From the IMG/VR virus record IMGVR_UViG_3300031965_000003, positions 5,350 to 69,349 of that record: a DNA stretch of 64,000 nt. The stretch is one strand, 5' to 3'. The stretch comes from a virus. The translations under genes were made by a program, and so were the position numbers. This document shows positions 11,877 through 28,097 of this stretch, piece after piece. The number at the start of each line of letters is the position of its first letter. The stretch's first letter is position 1. The notes beneath the pieces were generated by a model. The model had not been told where the DNA came from. It ran no database searches and saw nothing but the letters and a program-made list of their open reading frames with translations.

Positions 11877-13215
11877 TTTTAACCTCGTCTCCCGTTACGC
11901 CATTGTTTACTGCTGCAACTTCGCCATTTTCAATATAAACGCCGACCTTACCGCTCTCGTCGACCACTTCCATCCAGACCTGATAGTCTCTGTCTTGCGC
12001 CATCTCCTCGATGATCCGCATCGACTCGGAATCGAGCAGTGAGCCGTCAGTAATTCTTAGGACGTGTAATTTGGGATTGAGTGACATGGCCATCGCCATG
12101 CTAACCCTGAGTTGCTCGGCGCCGGAGGCTTGGGAGAGAGGCAAACCGTCGTAGGTCACCGCACCATTGCCAAAGCCTAGGGCATCCAACGGGAATTGCG
12201 CCGAGCTGATCAGTTCGGCCTTTTGCTGATCAATGCTGTCGATCGCCTTGGTGAGTTGATCAACCTTGGCATCGGTCGTCGCCAGTTCGGCCTTAAGACG
12301 CTTCATTTCCTTGACAGCGCGCTCGACCTCTGCTGACTTCCTCTCGAATTCGGCCAGCCGCTGCCGGATCAACTTGTTTTTCTTGCCAGCCTCTCTGATC
12401 TCGGCCTGTATGCCCGTGATGTCTGGAACCGTGATGGCGTCACGGTCGGTTGCAAGTGCATTGCGGATCTGTCGGACCTCGGAGAGTTGCACTTGCTTTT
12501 GGTCACGCTGCGCGGTCAACTTTATGATTTGGTCGTTTAGATTGTCGATGTCCCGAGTCAGCTCTCCGCCTCTGCGTTCGGCGTCGTCGGTCTTCATTTT
12601 GAAGCCATCCCGCTTCTGTTGCAGCGCCATGGCCTCATTGACTTTCTCCACCAAGTCGGCGACATCCGTTTCCTTTTCATCAACCAATGGCGGCAGCAAA
12701 GGCACGACGACAGAGGTCTCCTGTGCTTCGAGCCGCTTGGCGTCACGATTGATCTGGGTCCGCTCTTCGTAGAGCGCCTGTCTCTGCTGATCGAGCTTTG
12801 TCGTATCAATGCCGGTGAGCGCGCGCAGGGTATCGAATTGCTTTCGCTGATCCATCTGCATGAACTCCAAAGGATCGAAACTGAGTCGACCGATCAAACC
12901 GTCGAGCATGGTCTGCGGCGATTTGAAACGGAGACCGTCCTTGTTTTCGATCACCAGTGCGGTAGAACTCTCATTGAAACTGCGCTTGACGATGATGTCG
13001 CCGAGGTCGAGTTCTACGGCGGCTTTCTTCTGACCGCTGCGGATCGGTTTTTCCGGGATATTTTGTTGACCTCCCAACGCCCAGTAGATCGCATCCAGTA
13101 CGGAGGTTTTGCCGGCACTGTTCTTGCCGGTTATCTTGACGATATTACCGTTGGGAACGATTTCGACGGCGACGAGCTTTTTGATGTTCTCGGCGCGAAA
13201 TTTTATGATCCTCAT
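11809..13215 (-). CDS. SMC/Rad50-like AAA ATPase with coiled coil
   Basis: Walker A GKNSAGKTS, long coiled coil, signature ASGAEQL, ITDGSLLD. Confidence 0.9.
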   Translation of the reverse strand: MRIIKFRAENIKKLVAVEIVPNGNIVKITGKNSAGKTSVLDAIYWALGGQQNIPEKPIRSGQKKAAVELDLGDIIVKRSFNESSTALVIENKDGLRFKSPQTMLDGLIGRLSFDPLEFMQMDQRKQFDTLRALTGIDTTKLDQQRQALYEERTQINRDAKRLEAQETSVVVPLLPPLVDEKETDVADLVEKVNEAMALQQKRDGFKMKTDDAERRGGELTRDIDNLNDQIIKLTAQRDQKQVQLSEVRQIRNALATDRDAITVPDITGIQAEIREAGKKNKLIRQRLAEFERKSAEVERAVKEMKRLKAELATTDAKVDQLTKAIDSIDQQKAELISSAQFPLDALGFGNGAVTYDGLPLSQASGAEQLRVSMAMAMSLNPKLHVLRITDGSLLDSESMRIIEEMAQDRDYQVWMEVVDESGKVGVYIENGEVAAVNNGVTGDEVKNEFHKDQGREQTAERNPATTAG

Positions 13216-14195
13216 GACTTCGATCCTTTCTTGGCCATTGATTTCACGTTGAATCGCTCAGATGGTACTTTTTCGATTGCGTCTGGCGGCACCAGTTCCT
13301 CGATATACTTTTTTCGCTCACTGATGCTGATACTAATAAGATATTCCCCGGCACGCCCCGACTGCGCGTTAGCTTCCTTGAGTGCGGCTTTTAGCTGCCC
13401 TTTAAGTACATCTCGCTCCTTGCCGATTTCCGTTTCCTGCGCGCCCAACTCCTTGTAGTAGCGTGCCGTGGTTTCGAGTTCTTCGGCTAGCGCAACGTTC
13501 TCGGATAACGCCTTGACTTCCGCGACATAATTGCTCCAGCAGTGTTCCTGCCAGCGGCAATATCCGCAGTGCCAGTCGTCGAAATCATAAGGCCGCGGCG
13601 GTATCTCTCCGTCAGCCGCCATGCGCTCGACATTTTCAAACATGGCGATATCGGCGAGGGCCTGAGCCTCGTCGTACCGAATCGTAAACTCCTTCATCGT
13701 CGCCGTGTTCTTGTTCTTGTACAGAATTATGCCTTCGACGATGGGAAGCCCGGCTTTAGCCAAACCGTGTAGATAAAGATTTGCTTGCCGACGATGGTCG
13801 TCTAGAGGTTCGTCTTTGAGTCGCTCGAAACCGAAATGATTGATCGATTTGATTTCCAGTAGTCGGGTATATTCGAAGGGATCCGTGACTAAGCCGTCAA
13901 TCTCGCCGTCAAGTTTCTTGTCGCCGATCATGGCGATGAAGATGCGCTGCTTTGCGCCCTTGAGTTCGTCTAAACGAAATACCGTTTTGCGGATATGATC
14001 CTTGATCAATTTCTCATGAGTATTGCCATCCTCAAAGACAAGTAACGTTCGGCCAGGGAAACGATCAGGTTCAACCGCCGTGGCATGGTAGACCAAGGCA
14101 CGGACACATTTTCCGACGCTGCTAGGCCGTGGAAAATACGGACCTTGCTCTTCCTGATTATCGGCTGCATTGCGCGTGATTAGTTCAACCAACAT
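13212..14195 (-). CDS. Cas4-like PD-(D/E)xK exonuclease (phage recombination type)
   Basis: RPSSVGKC, GNTHE, DGEIDG, LLEIKS, RQANLY, DDWHCGYCRWQEHC; start moved to ATG 14195. Confidence 0.85.
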   Translation of the reverse strand: MLVELITRNAADNQEEQGPYFPRPSSVGKCVRALVYHATAVEPDRFPGRTLLVFEDGNTHEKLIKDHIRKTVFRLDELKGAKQRIFIAMIGDKKLDGEIDGLVTDPFEYTRLLEIKSINHFGFERLKDEPLDDHRRQANLYLHGLAKAGLPIVEGIILYKNKNTATMKEFTIRYDEAQALADIAMFENVERMAADGEIPPRPYDFDDWHCGYCRWQEHCWSNYVAEVKALSENVALAEELETTARYYKELGAQETEIGKERDVLKGQLKAALKEANAQSGRAGEYLISISISERKKYIEELVPPDAIEKVPSERFNVKSMAKKGSKS

Positions 14196-14631
14196 TGCGC
14201 AGATCCTTTTCCTTGTGCGGGCAAGGTAGTCCATCTTTTGTCGAACAGTTGCAGTTCCAACACAAAATAGTGAATTCGTCTTTCGGCCAACCTAATTTGG
14301 CAAGTGTCATGAGAAGACTAGTCGTGCTCTTTGTGTGCTCACGTCTCCATCTATGACCGCCGCCGTTTTTATGTTCCAAAGTAAGAAATCGCGGCTCAGT
14401 TTCACCGCAACAATTACAGCGACTTCCATACGCATGAATCATCTCCTCACGCAGTTGTCGGCTCCTACGTTGCCACCAAATTGACACTTTTTTTGAGCAG
14501 GATTTGCATCGGCTGTGCTTACCTGGAGACAGTGCGGGATTCTTTCCGCAGGCCCAACACAGTCCGTCCGCCTTCTTTTTGTCTTGCCATTTGATTCGAT
14601 CGGATGGTTTGGTTTTATAGCCTTTTGGCAT
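14185..14631 (-). CDS. Free-standing HNH homing endonuclease
   Basis: YGSRCNCCGETEPRFLTLEHKNGGG...ILCWNCN, with an N-terminal CxxC...CxxC zinc finger. Confidence 0.8.
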   Translation of the reverse strand: MPKGYKTKPSDRIKWQDKKKADGLCWACGKNPALSPGKHSRCKSCSKKVSIWWQRRSRQLREEMIHAYGSRCNCCGETEPRFLTLEHKNGGGHRWRREHTKSTTSLLMTLAKLGWPKDEFTILCWNCNCSTKDGLPCPHKEKDLRNVG

Positions 14632-14902: not shown

Positions 14903-15106
14903 CTATTCAGTGCGCCAGTAGCACGGATGCTCACGATCCAACTCGATCAAATCTGCAACGCTTATCTGCACCGTGCCGGCATTCAGGCTTTCCTGACACA
15001 TAAAAAGCCCTTGCCAACAACTTGCTGTCAGGCATTTATCGCAGACGGTGATTAAATCATCGAGTCGATTTTTCATCTGAAATTTACGAAATTGTATGTT
15101 GCTCAT
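14903..15106 (-). CDS. Hypothetical Cys-rich protein
   Basis: ITVCDKCLTASCWQGLFMC; start trimmed to ATG 15106 (15076 also possible). Confidence 0.6.
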   Translation of the reverse strand: MSNIQFRKFQMKNRLDDLITVCDKCLTASCWQGLFMCQESLNAGTVQISVADLIELDREHPCYWRTE

Positions 15107-15109
15107 ATC

Positions 15110-15145
15110 GAGTGAACGCCGACCTGAAGAAAAAGGGATTAAGAC
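15110..15145 (+). CRISPR. Solitary CRISPR-like repeat unit A (type III-style repeat, not an array)
   Basis: GAGTGAACGCCGACCTGAAGAAAAAGGGATTAAGAC (36 nt); the GACCTGA..AA.AAGGGATTAAGAC core and ATTAAGAC 3' end match the type III repeat family pattern as recalled; near-identical copy at 23499-23533. Confidence 0.7.
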
Positions 15146-15151
15146 TTTCCT

Positions 15152-15197
15152 CTTTCGTTCGCATGTCGTAGCAGAGACCGACATTGTTGCGACTCAT
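15152..15197. repeat. 46-bp imperfect direct repeat, copy 1 (adjacent to CRISPR-like repeat A)
   Basis: 39/46 identical to 15504-15549; first 20 nt (CTTTCGTTCGCATGTCGTAG) identical. Confidence 0.9.
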
Positions 15198-15199
15198 AG

Positions 15200-15493
15200 T
15201 TAGCATCCCTCATCGTGATAGCCGTCTTGCACGACGATCGGATCTCCACCAGCGTTGATGCCCTTGCCCTTGGATTCGACGCGCATAAGAATTATCGCAG
15301 AGTCAATATCGGGAGCCGAAACGGTATGGCAACGACCCCACTTGTCAAAGAGAGAGAGTTTCAATGTTACCAAGCGATCACAGTTGCTATGTTTCCACAG
15401 TTCCACGCCGATACAATAAATAGGCGTGGCGTCAAGTTCGTCTATTAAGTCTCTCGCTTTAGCTTCTGCTTCTTTAAGATCGTAAATCATCAC
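15200..15493 (-). CDS. Hypothetical acidic protein flanked by the 46-bp repeats
   Basis: 97-aa ORF with GGGGAG RBS. Confidence 0.65.
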   Translation of the reverse strand: MMIYDLKEAEAKARDLIDELDATPIYCIGVELWKHSNCDRLVTLKLSLFDKWGRCHTVSAPDIDSAIILMRVESKGKGINAGGDPIVVQDGYHDEGC

Positions 15494-15503
15494 GCTCTCC
15501 CCA

Positions 15504-15549
15504 CTTTCGTTCGCATGTCGTAGGGGAGACCCAAATTGTCGCGCTTCAT
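15504..15549. repeat. 46-bp imperfect direct repeat, copy 2
   Basis: See copy 1; sits just upstream of the RBS of 15200-15493. Confidence 0.9.
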
Positions 15550-15550
15550 A

Positions 15551-16528
15551 TCAGATAGCTTTCCCGCAGATATCGACTTCCCATATCGCGGCGCAGACCC
15601 CAGCAGCTTTAATCTTTTCTGGATACTTCGCGTTTTTGTGAACTTTGATCTGCGAGACTTTTAACGGACAGGCCATGAAATGTTTTGCCGCCGAATTAAA
15701 TTTCAGCGTGTGAATGGGTGACGGCGAGAAATGCAAACCGCCACCACACTCTGCTTCGCCGCCGTCCCAGTCTGCCGCTTGTGGTTTACCGCCCGACGTG
15801 TAAAAAATTCCGCGAATGCGGGCGTTGTCGGTAGAAAAATCCTCGTCAACACCCTTAAAGAGCACCGCGACGCCCTTTTTAATATCAACGCCGTAAAAAT
15901 CGCACCACTCTTTGGCGGTAGCAATTTCTGGAATTCGAATCTGTACGCCGCCTTTGGCTTTTACTTTTTGGCCATGAATAGTGACGGCGTTAAAGTCGGA
16001 AGCCGTCACCTGCGCGGAGTCGGAAGCCGTCACCTGCGCGGAGCCGTAAGCCCTCACCTGCGCGGAGCCGGAAGCCCTCACCTGCGCGGAGCCGGAAGCC
16101 CTCACCTGCGCGGAGCGCAAAGCCGTCACCTGCGCGGAGTCGGAAGCCGTCACCTGCGCGGAGTCGGAAGCCGTCACCTGCGCGGAGCCGAAAGCCCTCA
16201 CCTGCGCGGAGCCGAAAGCCGTCACCTGCGCGGAGCGCAAAGCCGTCACCTGCGCGGAGCCGTAAGCCGTCACCTGCGCGGAGTCGGAAGCCGTCACCTG
16301 CGCGGAGTCGGAAGCCCTCACCTGCGCGGAGCCGTAAGCCCTCACCTGCGCGGAGCCGAAAGCCCTCACCTGCGCGGAGCCGGAAGCCCTCACCTGCGCG
16401 GAGTCGGAAGCCGTCACCTGCGCGGAGCCGTAAATTTGAAAACTTTCCGTTCCAGTGCATTCTGGATAATCGCCGGATTCCAGCGCAGCGGTGAGTTCAC
16501 TCTGCGTTTTTACCAAAACCGTTTTCAT
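15551..16528 (-). CDS. Octapeptide-repeat beta-solenoid protein with DUF7666-like C-terminal domain
   Basis: 18 x AQV(T/R)AxxS followed by FKGVD...ECGGGLHFSPSP...KIKA. Confidence 0.75.
   Translation of the reverse strand: MKTVLVKTQSELTAALESGDYPECTGTESFQIYGSAQVTASDSAQVRASGSAQVRAFGSAQVRAYGSAQVRASDSAQVTASDSAQVTAYGSAQVTALRSAQVTAFGSAQVRAFGSAQVTASDSAQVTASDSAQVTALRSAQVRASGSAQVRASGSAQVRAYGSAQVTASDSAQVTASDFNAVTIHGQKVKAKGGVQIRIPEIATAKEWCDFYGVDIKKGVAVLFKGVDEDFSTDNARIRGIFYTSGGKPQAADWDGGEAECGGGLHFSPSPIHTLKFNSAAKHFMACPLKVSQIKVHKNAKYPEKIKAAGVCAAIWEVDICGKAI
15992..16423. repeat. 18 x 24-bp tandem repeat
   Basis: Unit (minus strand) GCGCAGGTGA(C/G)GGCT...CTCC. Confidence 0.95.
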
Positions 16529-17728: not shown

Positions 17729-18388
17729 TCATTCGCCCCTCCTCAGTCCCACCCCATGACAGGTCTCGCAGACATAGATCGGCATGCCAGAAATCCAGCC
17801 CCTGTGCCTGAGCGCCGCGTAGCATTCCGGACATGCCGCGCTTGGTCCCTTGTCGCCATGCAGAATCGGCTGACATTTTGTTTCTTCTTTGAGACTTGGA
17901 TTGCATTGGAGATTGATCGCCTCTTTATTTTTATAATAGTGCCGAAGCGCAGCTACTCTTGCGCAGGTACGACAGGTTCGTGCCCCAGTTACGTTAACGA
18001 AAACATTGTCACCGGAATATGGATGCCCATGAGGGCAATGCGTCTTGGCGAGTTTAGCCGCTATCGCCCGCTGTCGATTCTTCTCGGTAAACCCATTTCG
18101 GTGTTTCGCTTTTCGATCCGCCATATTGTCTTGATGTGTCCCAAGAAAAAGATGTTCGGGATTAACGCAATTACAAACATCGCAGTGATGGAGAACGTGG
18201 AGACCGTCTGTTATCGCGCCATGAGTCAATTCCCAGGCGATCCTGTGTGCTCTCACTGTTTTGCCCTTCCAATGCACCAATCCGTAGCGATGATCATTGC
18301 GGCCGCCAATGGCGCCGGTCCAGAGCCAACAATTCATGGTTTTATTGACGTAGTTCCAAAAATTATCGACGTTCATTTTTGACACCAT
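17729..18388 (-). CDS. HNH homing endonuclease
   Basis: CWLWTG...YG...RAHRIAWELTHG...VLHHCDVCNCVNPEHLFLGTHQDNMAD, then THCPHGHPY...CRTC; start trimmed. Confidence 0.88.
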   Translation of the reverse strand: MVSKMNVDNFWNYVNKTMNCWLWTGAIGGRNDHRYGLVHWKGKTVRAHRIAWELTHGAITDGLHVLHHCDVCNCVNPEHLFLGTHQDNMADRKAKHRNGFTEKNRQRAIAAKLAKTHCPHGHPYSGDNVFVNVTGARTCRTCARVAALRHYYKNKEAINLQCNPSLKEETKCQPILHGDKGPSAACPECYAALRHRGWISGMPIYVCETCHGVGLRRGE

Positions 18389-18659
18389 CGCTATGGATAA
18401 TCGGAAGTGCGTAGTTTTGAGCGAAATAAAAATTTTGAAGAATGTGATCGACCGAGTCCTGATCGCCACTGGCTACAGCCTTGACGAGTCTCGCCTTGAG
18501 GTCATCGAGACGAATGACCGGGATTTTGAGATCACGCTTCGGCTTCGGGTGCGGAGATTTGATCATGGGTGATTTCCGATTGAGTTGCCTACGCAGCACC
18601 CTGCTCTTGGGCGTTGATGATTTTCCGCGCTTTGCGGATGAGAGCCGAATGTCTGGCAT
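18363..18659 (-). CDS. Hypothetical basic protein
   Basis: ORF track; true start may be internal. Confidence 0.45.
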   Translation of the reverse strand: MPDIRLSSAKRGKSSTPKSRVLRRQLNRKSPMIKSPHPKPKRDLKIPVIRLDDLKARLVKAVASGDQDSVDHILQNFYFAQNYALPIIHSDGVKNERR

Positions 18660-22683: not shown

Positions 22684-23436
22684 CTATAGCGCAAGTGCAA
22701 CGGCCTTTTTGATCGCCGCTTTCAGCGCTGTCGCGCCTTCCGCATCCGTGCCGGGCCGAAACGCCAACTCTTTGAGTTTCTGATAGGTCGCCCAGGCTGA
22801 CTCTGCCTCGGTATTCAGTTCGCCCGTCTCCGCGCGATGGATAATCAAGTCCTCTAGTGCGAGCAACGCCGCGAGTTCCTTCCCGTCAGAATTTAACCCG
22901 GCGGCTTCGGATGATGGCGCATCGGCCACGGGCGCCGATTGCGCGCCAGACTGCTCGATGATTTGATAATCCCACGCCGGTTGATCTTTCAGGGCGATGC
23001 CGCGCGGGACATCGCGAATTTCCACTATTGCGTTTTTTGCGACGATCGCGGGATTTTTGCGCGAGCCGCCACTACCAAGATCACCATCACTAACGATCAC
23101 GCCCGTCCCCAAGCGCACGCCGCCGTCGCGGCCATACTTGAGTTGCGCAATTTGCCTGCCGGCGACAAACAAGGAATCGTAATGACCGTTGATCCCGATG
23201 CGGATCGTCACTAGATCAACTGCCGCCTCGGTCCCGTCAACACCGAATATTTCTCGGCACAGTCCCCTGACTCGCGCCTCGTCTCGCGGATCAAACGACC
23301 ATTCTCGGCTCTCAGCCTGCCAAGTGCCGCCTAATTTTTTTGCCGCTGCGGGGAAATCGGGGTGATAAGGGCTGGAGATGCGGAGACGTTGACGACCATC
23401 TTTTAGGACGACCGTCCGATAATTGATATTTGACAT
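22684..23436 (-). CDS. Hypothetical phage early protein
   Basis: SPYHPDFPAAAKKLGGTW...WSF N-terminal module; GGAGG RBS. Confidence 0.7.
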   Translation of the reverse strand: MSNINYRTVVLKDGRQRLRISSPYHPDFPAAAKKLGGTWQAESREWSFDPRDEARVRGLCREIFGVDGTEAAVDLVTIRIGINGHYDSLFVAGRQIAQLKYGRDGGVRLGTGVIVSDGDLGSGGSRKNPAIVAKNAIVEIRDVPRGIALKDQPAWDYQIIEQSGAQSAPVADAPSSEAAGLNSDGKELAALLALEDLIIHRAETGELNTEAESAWATYQKLKELAFRPGTDAEGATALKAAIKKAVALAL

Positions 23437-23447
23437 GGTATCCTCCC

Positions 23448-23474
23448 CGCTCCGGGTCAGCGGAGCGTTTTTTT
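23448..23474 (+). terminator. Hairpin with T7 tail (plus-strand terminator; on the minus strand it overlaps an RBS)
   Basis: CGCTCCG-GGTCAG-CGGAGCG followed by TTTTTTT. Confidence 0.55.
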
Positions 23475-23479
23475 AGGCT

Positions 23480-23497
23480 CGGTTAGCTCCGGGCGGG
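23480..23497. repeat. Early-region leader motif, copy 1 (minus strand CCCGCCCGGAGCTAACCG)
   Basis: Shared with 24964-24991 and 25284-25311; the 11-nt core also occurs at 24038-24048. Confidence 0.85.
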
Positions 23498-23498
23498 C

Positions 23499-23533
23499 GA
23501 GTGAACGACGACCTGAAGAAAAGGGATTAAGAC
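23499..23533 (+). CRISPR. Solitary CRISPR-like repeat unit B
   Basis: GAGTGAACGACGACCTGAAGAAAAGGGATTAAGAC; differs from unit A by one substitution and one A deletion. Confidence 0.7.
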
Positions 23534-23569
23534 CATGCTGCACACTCACCGCGTGGCAATAACACGTCT

Positions 23570-23854
23570 TCATTCCTCCAAGAGCAAGAAGCCTTCTGGG
23601 CGATCATTTTTTGCATTATTAAAGTAGATTCTGGTTGTCATACAATTCCGATCAAATGTAAGCGATTTGGTTTTCAGAGTTTTACAACCGACCCAACCGC
23701 TATGTTTCAGGGCACGCATTATGGTTTTATTGTCACAATCCTGATCATCGGGTAAGGTACAAACATGAGATGTTTTTAACACATTAAAAACGTTCCACCC
23801 GTCCTTTTTGGACCCCCATTTTTCATAGATGTAAACTCTCCATGTCCGTTTCAT
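23570..23854 (-). CDS. Hypothetical protein
   Basis: 94-aa ORF in early operon. Confidence 0.65.
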   Translation of the reverse strand: MKRTWRVYIYEKWGSKKDGWNVFNVLKTSHVCTLPDDQDCDNKTIMRALKHSGWVGCKTLKTKSLTFDRNCMTTRIYFNNAKNDRPEGFLLLEE

Positions 23855-24055: not shown

Positions 24056-24406
24056 TTATATTTCCGAGATAACGTAGGTAATCGCCGGGCCTGCAATTGC
24101 TCGTAGACGATCAATACCTAGCTCAACCCCTCGATCTGCTGGGGTCAAAGCTAGCGGTATCTCAGTAACGCTAGCCGCCAATACGGCTAGTGACAGTGGG
24201 AGCACGCCAACCACGTGGCATGCCTCTACATCGTCAGGCTCCGCGTGAGCAATCACGCGAGCATTGTCAGTGACAAGCCCGCGCTCTCGCAGTAGCTCAA
24301 CGAGCGCCGGGTGACGAGTTACCACTACCACGGGCGCGCACGGTGCGCCGGCATCCGGTACGATGCCGCAAAAACGGCATCGACCGTTAGTAAATTTGTG
24401 TTTCAT
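24056..24406 (-). CDS. Csx16 (VVA1548)-family protein; candidate cyclic-oligoadenylate ring nuclease / anti-CRISPR
   Basis: VVVVTRHPALVELLRERG...VIAHAEPDDV...VVGVLPLSLA...LALTPADRGVEL matches recalled Csx16 consensus (SRHPGAIEWL..QG...VAHLD..D...VIGTLPVHLA...LDLP..LRG.EL) along its length. Confidence 0.78.
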   Translation of the reverse strand: MKHKFTNGRCRFCGIVPDAGAPCAPVVVVTRHPALVELLRERGLVTDNARVIAHAEPDDVEACHVVGVLPLSLAVLAASVTEIPLALTPADRGVELGIDRLRAIAGPAITYVISEI

Positions 24407-24963: not shown

Positions 24964-24991
24964 GTTCTCGGCCCGGTTAGCTCCGGGCGGG
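24964..24991. repeat. 28-bp direct repeat / leader hairpin, copy 2
   Basis: GTTCTCGGCCCGGTTAGCTCCGGGCGGG, identical to 25284-25311. Confidence 0.92.
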
Positions 24992-25011
24992 CTTGCTGGT
25001 GCGCTCCATTA

Positions 25012-25283: not shown

Positions 25284-25311
25284 GTTCTCGGCCCGGTTAG
25301 CTCCGGGCGGG
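25284..25311. repeat. 28-bp direct repeat / leader hairpin, copy 3
   Basis: Identical to 24964-24991; contains perfect stem GCCCGG-N6-CCGGGC. Confidence 0.92.
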
Positions 25312-25497
25312 TTTGGTGTTTTTTGGGTCGATTTTTTTTAGCACATCACCGGTTAGGCCTTGCGCGTGGGCGGTGCGTAGGCAGTGCGCATGGATCGCCT
25401 CGGCAATAAACCGCTGGAGGGTTACCCCAGTGCGCGCGGAGAGAAACTTAGCCGCCGCGTGAGTTGCGTTATCCAAACCTGTAATCCGTAGTTCCAT
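25297..25497 (-). CDS. Ribbon-helix-helix (Arc/CopG-like) regulator, first early gene
   Basis: Alternating strand ELRITGLD, then helices NATHAAAKFLSARTG and VTLQRFIAEAI. Confidence 0.65.
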   Translation of the reverse strand: MELRITGLDNATHAAAKFLSARTGVTLQRFIAEAIHAHCLRTAHAQGLTGDVLKKIDPKNTKPARS

Positions 25498-25991: not shown

Positions 25992-26171
25992 TCAGTTATT
26001 AAGACTTTGATGCAAAAACCTTCGATGCCCAACCTCTAACTGTAAGGTCACTGGACAGCACCAACAAGTTATGGTTGACACGGCATGCGCCTCTAAGCAT
26101 CCCTCATCAAATTCTAGCAACAACTCATCTTGCTGTGCCTTAAGTAACTTATCATAGGCATCATGAGCCAT
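25992..26171 (-). CDS. Hypothetical protein
   Basis: MAHDAYDKLL...; start trimmed to ATG 26171. Confidence 0.5.
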   Translation of the reverse strand: MAHDAYDKLLKAQQDELLLEFDEGCLEAHAVSTITCWCCPVTLQLEVGHRRFLHQSLNN

Positions 26172-26334
26172 GATTTCCTTCTTTCTTTTTAACGAGCATA
26201 TCAAGCTTGATCGCGGCAAGTTTAAGGGTAGTCTCAACGTCCCTGAGAGCTTGCAGTAGTATCTCGTTCTCACGCCGCAGCTTGTCTATATGATCAGCTG
26301 CTTGTGGACTCAATGACTGCCCTGGTTGCTCCAT
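26161..26334 (-). CDS. Small coiled-coil protein (57 aa)
   Basis: Manual translation MEQPGQSLSPQAADHIDKLRRENEILLQALRDVETTLKLAAIKLDMLVKKKEGNHGS. Confidence 0.5.
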   Translation of the reverse strand: MEQPGQSLSPQAADHIDKLRRENEILLQALRDVETTLKLAAIKLDMLVKKKEGNHGS

Positions 26335-26658: not shown

Positions 26659-27240
26659 TTAGGAAGCCGGCTTTTCGACAGTCATTGCTTTGGCTACTCC
26701 CGCCGCTACGGCGCCAGCGATAGCATCCAAGAACACTGGTGTCTTGGCGACCAATTCGGCAACTTCGTCAACATTCCACTGACGATCGATTGCCAAGTCG
26801 GAATTCCGAACAGTCCGCGCAACTTCGCCTTCCTGGAATGCACGAATCCGTCCGTCGTGCGAGATCGCGAGATTATTCACACGTCCCTGCAAACTTACGG
26901 CTCCTTGCATCAACTGAACCGTCAACTGCCGCAAATTCTGATCATGGTCCTCACCGTTTCGTTCTCTACGCTGTACCATGTTCTGTGAGGCGGAATCACG
27001 ATTCAATTCCATTGCGACTAGCCGCTTCATGTTCAGCATGTAGGCTTCGGCTTGCCCGATGTCGCTGGTTACCTCCGCTCCCGAAGAGCGATAACCAGCG
27101 CCAACGTCCGTTTGCTGTCCGCCCTGAGAGGCCGACGTTGCCGTTGCTGCCTGAGCTGCATCCGCTGCTGCTCTAGCGCTAGCCGCAGCTTGTTCGGCTG
27201 CTATTCTAACGCTTTCTACATCTATTTCCGTTTGTGCCAT
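26659..27240 (-). CDS. Hypothetical helical late protein
   Basis: 193 aa, AGGAGG RBS, Ala/Gln-rich. Confidence 0.7.
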   Translation of the reverse strand: MAQTEIDVESVRIAAEQAAASARAAADAAQAATATSASQGGQQTDVGAGYRSSGAEVTSDIGQAEAYMLNMKRLVAMELNRDSASQNMVQRRERNGEDHDQNLRQLTVQLMQGAVSLQGRVNNLAISHDGRIRAFQEGEVARTVRNSDLAIDRQWNVDEVAELVAKTPVFLDAIAGAVAAGVAKAMTVEKPAS

Positions 27241-28097
27241 AATGTTTCCCTCCTTTCTCCCGGATCTCCGGGCAAATTATTCTCAACCGCGATAATCGTA
27301 TTGAGTAAGTGCGAAAACGCTGAGCCGTTTGTGATCTCATGTTCCCATACTACTAATACTTTCCATCCGAGTTTTTTAGCGCGAAGCTCGACTATTTCAA
27401 ATTCGCTGTCGAATTTAGTATGTCTCCCGCTAGGAAAACATTGCGGACATGCGTGCCAATAACATCCGTTCCCTTCGATAATTAGTTTTAGATACGGGAT
27501 GGCGATGTCGAATTGATGATATGGATGCAAGGCGGGAACAACTAAATGCTTTTCGTATGAGATGCCGTGCCTAGCAAGAAACTTCTGCAAAGGAATTTCA
27601 ACGGACTTGCTATCCTTTATCGGCATCACCATTTTAGCTCGCGCAGCTTTCAACGCTAAACGATGTGCTTGCGTTCTAGGTGGTTTTTTAATTCCCTTTT
27701 TAGATTCGCTATTTCTTCGTCGTTCTTCTTCAGTCATCGGGCGCCTACGAATTCCCCTTTGAACGAGACTAATCTTTTTAACCCACTCTTCTCCATGCGG
27801 CTTACCGCGATGATTATGGCCGTGAATAAATCTTCCGCCTAACTCTGGACGGGCAGGGTGAATTACTTGACCACAACCGCAAGCACACAATGGTAATATT
27901 GTTGGTAGAGGATGTTTACGCCTGCGCGCCCTGGCTTCTTCGCTTAATGGACCTCTTGGAATACCTTTCTGCGCCAAGCTAACTTTTCTAGTCCATTCTT
28001 CGCTATGAGGTTTACCACGCCCATTATGGCCGTGGATGTATGTTCGCAGCGTAGCCCCGCCACAGCCACAAGCGCATAGATTAGACATTTGATTCAA
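27222..28097 (-). CDS. NUMOD3-repeat + Vsr/DUF559-type putative homing endonuclease
   Basis: Two CACGCG...IHGHN.RGKPH.EEW..K.SL repeats; C-terminal SVE...FDIAI...IIEGNGCYWH...GWKVLVVWEHEI. Confidence 0.8.
   Translation of the reverse strand: MNQMSNLCACGCGGATLRTYIHGHNGRGKPHSEEWTRKVSLAQKGIPRGPLSEEARARRRKHPLPTILPLCACGCGQVIHPARPELGGRFIHGHNHRGKPHGEEWVKKISLVQRGIRRRPMTEEERRRNSESKKGIKKPPRTQAHRLALKAARAKMVMPIKDSKSVEIPLQKFLARHGISYEKHLVVPALHPYHQFDIAIPYLKLIIEGNGCYWHACPQCFPSGRHTKFDSEFEIVELRAKKLGWKVLVVWEHEITNGSAFSHLLNTIIAVENNLPGDPGERRETLWHKRK

Follow-up and report, generated by a model that had tools for sequence, protein, structure and literature searches.

Solitary type III-associated CRISPR repeats lie antisense to the genes of a phage that carries a Csx16-family gene

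Two full-length CRISPR repeats, each standing alone and each reading in the opposite sense to the genes around it, were found in a phage that carries a candidate type III counter-defence gene. They lie in a 64,000-nt stretch of DNA (hereafter, the window) from a 95,009-bp virus record, with repeat A at 15110-15145 and repeat B at 23498-23533, both on the + strand. Judged by their sequence, both belong to a type III-associated CRISPR repeat family ending in GGGATTAAGAC. The repeats are likely an immune-evasion device, and we propose that they may act as a mark of self in the phage mRNAs. Solitary repeats in phages are already known, and the supplement of PMC10651486 catalogues them, the GGGATTAAGAC family included. 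The arrangement described here, without a detectable promoter, antisense to the operon, and beside a ring nuclease gene, appears to be new.

Repeat A is a 36-mer, and B departs from it by one C/A substitution and a 1-nt deletion (one A fewer in the A-run of the loop). Their similarity begins one base before A, at 15109, giving a 37-nt unit at 15109-15145, and the two copies are in direct orientation at a distance of 8,389 nt. They were the only copies in the whole virus record, and none of 100 dinucleotide-preserving shuffles of the window contained a chance match to the 36-mer at three or fewer mismatches. On neither strand did the 200 nt to each side of A and B contain a degenerate partner repeat above the shuffle level. 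A and B are therefore solitary repeats, not a CRISPR array or mini-array, which would comprise at least two repeats with spacers of ~30-45 nt. As SRUFinder asks of solitary units (PMC10651486), both are intergenic and their flanking 100 bp contain no partial repeat.

A coding role for the repeats was rejected. Short ORFs on the minus strand cross both repeats; the 1-nt indel between the copies shifts their frame, so they are not conserved coding sequences, and a third phage lineage uses another frame of the repeat. An Rfam scan of the whole window gave no match, and neither the repeat (on either strand) nor its 130-150-nt contexts folded better than shuffles. The sequencing runs containing the phage sequence were soil and sediment DNA runs only, and contigs from four runs, aligned at A and B, showed no variation. 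No DNA relative of the phage was found among 50,697 phage records, and IMG/VR yielded neither a match to the exact repeat nor relatives of the phage exonuclease gene. A third ATTAAGAC, the last 8 nt of the repeat, is present at 25998-26005 (+ strand), near the 3' end of an ORF at 25992-26273 (minus strand). It was rejected as a third repeat: the sequence upstream does not resemble the repeat, and for this 8-mer to be present three times in the window is at the level of chance. Outside the window, the two ends of the record (G000:C1:1-190 and 94,520-95,009) consist of one and the same tandem repeat with a 12-nt unit. A single long repeat of this kind is probably where the assembly broke, and the phage genome may be circularly closed. 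In one variant of the 12-nt unit, 9 nt are identical, probably by chance, to the first 9 nt of repeat A.

Related arrays were used to characterise the repeat family. We searched prokaryotic genomes, one for each species, for pairs of GGGATTAAGAC ends at a spacing of 48-78 nt and obtained at least 120 loci; a more specific metagenome scan returned 54 further array loci. More than 170 bacterial and metagenomic arrays have the 3' half of repeat A in common. The listed loci were all arrays with a period of ~70 nt, and their repeats follow the architecture G(A/C)CC(T/C)G-loop-(A/G)GGG-ATTAAGAC. The closest array among the matches listed (L027, in the 7.1-Mb genome G001) matches A at 32/36 positions and an A/B hybrid at 33/36, and several metagenome array repeats are 31/36 identical to the repeat; the nearest array found is thus 89-92% identical to the phage repeat. 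The cas-gene neighbourhood, examined at this one locus of the family, contains genes for Csm2 (PF03750, 4e-10), two RAMP proteins, and Csm6-HEPN (PF09670, 8e-31), and the L027 array is therefore type III-A. The same family is represented in supplement file 3 of PMC10651486, where solitary repeats ending in GGGATTAAGAC from IMG/VR3 are typed as III-A or III-B by CCTyper. The phage repeat sequence itself was absent from the examined part of that supplement.

We determined the crRNA-sense strand from array polarity and from the position of the handle. When 39 complete arrays were oriented so that their repeats end in GGGATTAAGAC, a degenerate extra terminal repeat lay downstream in 17 arrays and upstream in 1, and the last repeat had more mismatches than the first in 18 arrays, with the reverse in 2. 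Cas6 cleavage leaves an 8-nt crRNA handle, its canonical position being 8 nt before the repeat end. In the phage repeat, a stem (CCT-loop-AGG) is followed by exactly 8 nt, ATTAAGAC; the stem itself is weak (3 bp, -3.2 kcal/mol) and no better than in shuffles. Array polarity, together with the stem followed by exactly 8 nt, establishes the + strand of the window as the crRNA-sense strand for both A and B. The genes next to A and B are all on the minus strand, and a non-overlapping ORF set for the whole window comprises 76 minus-strand and 9 plus-strand ORFs.

In minus-strand mRNA, the 8-nt handle of both copies is thus present as its exact complement, GUCUUAAU. These anti-tags, read from the sequence, lie at 15138-15145 (A) and 23526-23533 (B), both on the minus strand. 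Type III systems reportedly discriminate self from non-self through pairing between crRNA tag and anti-tag (Marraffini and Sontheimer 2010). When the crRNA handle pairs with the 3' flank of a target, type III complexes read that target as a transcript of their own array; Cas10 is then not activated, and neither cyclic oligoadenylate nor DNase activity results. An anti-tag counts only when it directly abuts a protospacer. The earlier note had described 15110-15145 as a solitary, CRISPR-like, type III-style repeat with its crRNA sense on the + strand, opposite to the phage genes, and our results agree with it on each of these points: the position is exact, and the repeat family is genuine. Its further suggestion of a perfect anti-tag in the minus-strand mRNA is true at the level of the sequence, and the orientation statistics given below favour it over a promoter model. 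As a free decoy, which was the role suggested, such an anti-tag would not work, because it matters only where it abuts a protospacer.

The reading that we favour, with a probability of roughly one in three, is that the active molecule is the phage mRNA itself, in which the anti-tag makes an adjoining targeted site look 'self'. According to this proposal, A and B would have been copied full-length from a type III (Csm/Cmr) array of the phage's host. Placed in short non-coding gaps of minus-strand operons, they would be transcribed only within phage mRNAs, in antisense, and these mRNAs would carry GUCUUAAU directly 3' of the phage segments 15146-15182 (A) and 23534-23569 (B). Both segments are putative 'self' protospacers on the minus strand, defined by position only; the first lies inside a leader element (D4, described below) and the second consists of the 36 nt from B to the stop codon of the gene at 23570-23854. 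The host would have had spacers against both segments, the repeat would have been gained via recombination with the array at spacer/protospacer homology, and variants with a neighbouring repeat would be invisible to those spacers and would be selected; it is these three elements, host spacers, recombination origin, and protective effect, that we infer. A nearby Csx16 ring nuclease may blunt the remaining signalling. Functional type III spacers are antisense to mRNA, so an origin by array recombination would make the antisense orientation automatic. As in the known tag:anti-tag system, the phage mRNA has a perfect 8-nt handle complement, such as an antisense array transcript would have. The difference is that the anti-tag here would lie on the invader, not on the host array, and would abut a host-targeted sequence that is inferred here.

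The gene for this candidate cA4 ring nuclease lies at 24056-24406 (minus strand). It belongs to the string of minus-strand genes that includes the B locus and is 523 nt away from B, with a 94-aa ORF (23570-23854, minus strand) in between. Its product matches Pfam PF09652 (Cas_VVA1548, Csx16) with an E-value of 6.9e-13; the score of 49 bits exceeds the curated cut-off, which is 25. Among 28,114 phage genomes, just 2 were reported to encode Csx16, a ring nuclease specific for cA4 (bioRxiv 10.1101/2024.09.24.614671). In one bacterial genome (G002), an array whose repeat matches A at 31/36 positions has a native Csx16 gene 3 kb away, and the two Csx16 proteins share 36% identity. The Csx16-family gene near B, together with this array and its native Csx16, indicates that the phage is under type III pressure, and it is plainly engaged with type III systems of this kind. 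In carrying such a gene, the phage resembles other viruses with ring nucleases (AcrIII-1, phage Csx16; bioRxiv 10.1101/2024.09.24.614671) and thus counters type III signalling at the protein level. Unlike these protein enzymes, which act on cA4, the repeats are a separate feature at the level of nucleic acid. No recognisable acr-type gene was found next to A.

We then examined whether the repeats could be transcribed in their own sense. The earlier note had proposed a weak + strand promoter upstream of A (TTCATC-17-TATGTT), and our results gave this proposal no support: its score of 7/12 is the same as the median of the best scores obtained for 1,500 random 75-nt segments of the window, and a consensus promoter scan did not report it. 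No + strand promoter candidate was found for B. Directly upstream of B is a strong terminator-like hairpin with a T7 run (23448-23477, + strand) that ends ~20 nt before the repeat, and this argues against + strand read-in to B. The hairpin is a + strand terminator-like element in a region with genes on the minus strand only. All transcription upstream of A and B would run in the sense opposite to the repeat. Among 28 viral solitary repeats of the GGGATTAAGAC family, promoters were not enriched (mean best scores of 7.14 and 7.04 for the two strands versus a background of 6.86). Many other phages have only 3-30 nt between the repeat's 5' end and the start codon of a gene on the opposite strand, which leaves no room for a promoter.

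These results weigh on the classic explanation by decoy crRNAs (Racrs), which we consider rather doubtful for this phage. Here, a cryptic + strand promoter would give a small repeat-sense RNA that is cut by host Cas6, and the handle-bearing product would load Csm/Cmr or tie up Cas6, diluting the phage-targeting crRNAs. Several features do suit this explanation. Type III crRNAs require only an upstream repeat, so a single repeat would suffice, and the full 36 nt, with Cas6 stem and handle, are conserved between A and B. As with the solitary repeat units and Racrs described previously (Faure et al. 2019; Camara-Wilpert et al. 2023, PMC10651486), A and B are lone, full-length, host-type repeats in intergenic positions without cas genes, and a candidate anti-CRISPR gene is near, B having the Racr-type location close to the Csx16-family gene. 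Decoy function has been shown for type I-F and other types of solitary repeat, which cluster with acr genes (PMC10651486), and the III-A/III-B assignments in the supplement extend the catalogue to the present family; however, type III is absent from the main text of that paper. Unlike the units described there, the phage repeats have no detectable promoter, and their sense strand is opposite to all surrounding genes.

Orientation further separates this family from type I-F. Three pattern scans of IMG/VR contigs gave 39 loci with GGGATTAAGAC-family repeats, almost all of them solitary, and for the census, loci with a shared flank were represented by a single one and orientation was scored against the ORFs up to 1.5 kb away. 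With genes called simply as longest ORFs, A and B coming from one phage, and some loci having a common repeat, the type III family was antisense to the surrounding genes at 17 loci, mixed at 8-9, and sense at 2-5 (binomial p 0.0007-0.017; here and below, the second figure of each census range leaves out flagged possible chance matches). The same procedure applied to type I-F solitary repeats gave 16 sense, 10 mixed, and 8 antisense loci, with a Fisher p of 0.0004-0.004 for the contrast between the two types. At 21-22 of 27-31 type III loci, the gene 5' of the repeat was on the opposite strand, versus 8/34 type I-F loci (p 3e-5 to 2e-4). The type I-F solitary repeats (L222-L321, IMG/VR) were co-directional with the upstream gene in 26/34 cases and lay between convergent genes in 12/34.

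The antisense bias of type III solitary repeats, in contrast to the sense bias of type I-F, appears to be new. It runs against the decoy explanation, since the orientation is opposite to that of the class with the validated RacrIF1. An anti-tag role would predict an antisense bias confined to an RNA-sensing system, and so would an origin at functional type III spacers. Taken together, the lack of promoters, the hairpin before B, and the type III-specific antisense bias point to the phage mRNA as the relevant molecule.

The immediate surroundings of the repeats bear on how they arrived. At A, a predicted 50-nt leader element, D4 (15149-15198, minus strand), ends in a Shine-Dalgarno sequence, and so does a second copy (15501-15550, minus strand), which is 84% identical to the first and has a start codon directly after it. 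Each D4 copy precedes a small gene, and A is wedged between the first copy and the ATG of a 67-aa gene (phrog_10857; 14903-15106, minus strand), which lies immediately downstream of the reverse-complement repeat in the direction of transcription. A 97-aa gene with no family match (15200-15493, minus strand) precedes D4 and A on the same transcript side, upstream of both. Excising the 37-nt unit would leave AAGAGG, 5 nt, and the ATG at 15106, and A looks like a clean insertion that parted the Shine-Dalgarno sequence from its ATG. A GC-rich leader hairpin, D3 (about 23470-23497, minus strand), abuts B, and further copies lie between small early genes at 24964-24998 and 25284-25318; the one loose contig end at this locus, at 23497, is explained by another D3 copy. 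Downstream of the reverse-complement B in the direction of transcription is a 250-aa gene (phrog_18108; 22684-23436, minus strand).

The products of neighbouring genes include a Cas4-like exonuclease, an SbcC-like ATPase, HNH endonucleases, a ParB-like nuclease, a PAPS-reductase-like protein, and many small unknowns. The Cas4-domain exonuclease gene (13212-14631 region) has its start overlapped by an HNH endonuclease gene, and two more HNH/homing-endonuclease genes lie within the same 15 kb (17729-18469 and 27222-28097). The ORF at 15551-16528 (minus strand) consists mostly of a 24-nt tandem repeat (15898-16521; 8-residue period, ~26 units) and matches phrog_15773 and, weakly, baseplate families.

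The insertion-like appearance of A is compatible with the repeats being functionless footprints, a reading that we consider unlikely. They would then be scars of phage-array recombination, or 36-bp homology patches for cassette exchange between phages, and the orientation bias would reflect only how scars arise, at type III spacers antisense to mRNA. The direct copies bracket 8.4 kb of accessory-looking genes (HNH, ParB-like, PAPS-reductase-like), and the failure to find the exact host array in the metagenome collection also fits. In one other lineage (L126), the repeats sit at mosaic junctions: the repeat accompanies the handle-side flank in 5/5 contigs, and the other flank occurs in three versions. 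However, identical repeats are found, still full-length, in several unrelated contexts, only two positions distinguish A from B, and one copy adjoins a type III counter-defence gene. One identical 36-nt repeat was present in at least four unrelated flank contexts (L127/L136, L128, L141, L144), which points to repeated acquisition. This recurrence and the flank pattern of the L126 lineage also count in favour of the self-mimicry reading. In another phage (L130, IMGVR_UViG_3300020050_009088), a 9-nt direct repeat, CCGTTACTC, is found on both sides of the solitary repeat, with 7 extra nt on one side, and this may be a microhomology footprint of insertion. No protein families were found to recur beside the family repeats in unrelated phages.

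A trans-acting antisense role is a less probable alternative, to which we give little credence. The complement of the repeat, present in an abundant early mRNA, would pair with every pre-crRNA repeat, blocking Cas6 or inviting RNase III, so that no new crRNAs would mature. Such an 'anti-repeat' would account for the antisense orientation, the missing dedicated promoter, the full-length conservation, and the early-operon position beside csx16. It gives no reason, however, for a bias specific to type III rather than type I-F, it would leave complexes loaded before infection untouched, and the copies match known arrays at only 31-33/36 among the matches listed. We found no precedent for it in the literature.

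The similarity between the two D4 copies brings up a guide made from a single repeat, which is very improbable. A crRNA formed from A and the adjoining D4 would direct host type III complexes to 15501-15550, or to repeat-less relatives of the phage, for self-regulation or for competition between phages. The sequence after A is, as noted, close to 15501-15550, and viral mini-arrays do target related viruses (PMC11656645). The guide would nevertheless require + strand transcription, for which the promoter evidence is at background; 15501-15550 has no anti-tag, at the risk of Cas10 activation against the phage itself; and B has no second site of this kind. In CRISPR mini-arrays acting in virus-virus conflict (Medvedeva et al. 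2019, as summarised in PMC11656645), host-type repeats are likewise present on a virus without cas genes; unlike in those mini-arrays, there is no second repeat within 200 nt here, and hence no bounded spacer.

Least credible is an attP-like site for integration into a host CRISPR array, for although solitary repeats have been proposed to serve integration into CRISPR repeats (introduction of PMC10651486) and the record contains a tyrosine-recombinase-like fragment, we judged this reading unlikely because the recombinase match is a 133-aa open frame only, 16 kb from A, two copies 8.4 kb apart do not fit, and no orientation bias relative to genes would be expected. The recombinase match (PF00589) covers the C-terminal half of the model only and lies outside the window, at G000:C1:3788-4048.

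Self-mimicry by an anti-tag in the phage mRNA, the reading that we prefer, also has evidence against it. Self-recognition needs only the 8 handle nucleotides, yet both copies retain all 36. What was inserted looks in both cases like an exact repeat unit, an outcome not explained by simple one-sided recombination, and each copy would shield just one protospacer. The searches for the predicted host array and spacers also count against it. The exact array was not found in the metagenome collection, in 123 genomes of the G001 order, or in the genome matches listed (at least 120 loci), and the best array matches to the phage repeat were only 31-33/36 among the matches listed. No spacer among 1,855 from arrays matched the phage over 20 nt or more, and none of 2,440 array spacers matched the flanks of A or B; the same 2,440 matched no viral locus except for mini-array self-hits. 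We also followed the anti-tag prediction for another phage (L204), and no array spacer in 301 Chromatiaceae genomes equalled its flank. In the literature, we found no paper on natural acquisition of an anti-tag.

Type III immunity is said to be hard to escape, as it tolerates mismatches and works without a PAM (for example, Pyenson et al. 2017). To our knowledge, the known escapes from it are deletions and protein anti-CRISPRs. It is possible, and we put it forward tentatively, that phages also escape type III by planting a host repeat beside the targeted site rather than by mutating the site. If so, the antisense bias of viral type III solitary repeats would be the genomic trace of this route, and these repeats would be mechanistically unlike Racr decoys. 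If A and B are ordinary Racrs or scars, the locus simply adds another entry, next to a phage ring nuclease, to the solitary repeats already catalogued. If, on the other hand, a 36-nt repeat beside the target suffices to switch off Cas10, it would offer phages a cheap third escape route, one that would be legible from sequence alone, and the type III solitary repeats already catalogued should not be assumed to be Racr decoys. The opposite orientation biases of type III and type I-F repeats provide a concrete hypothesis for any type III model system.
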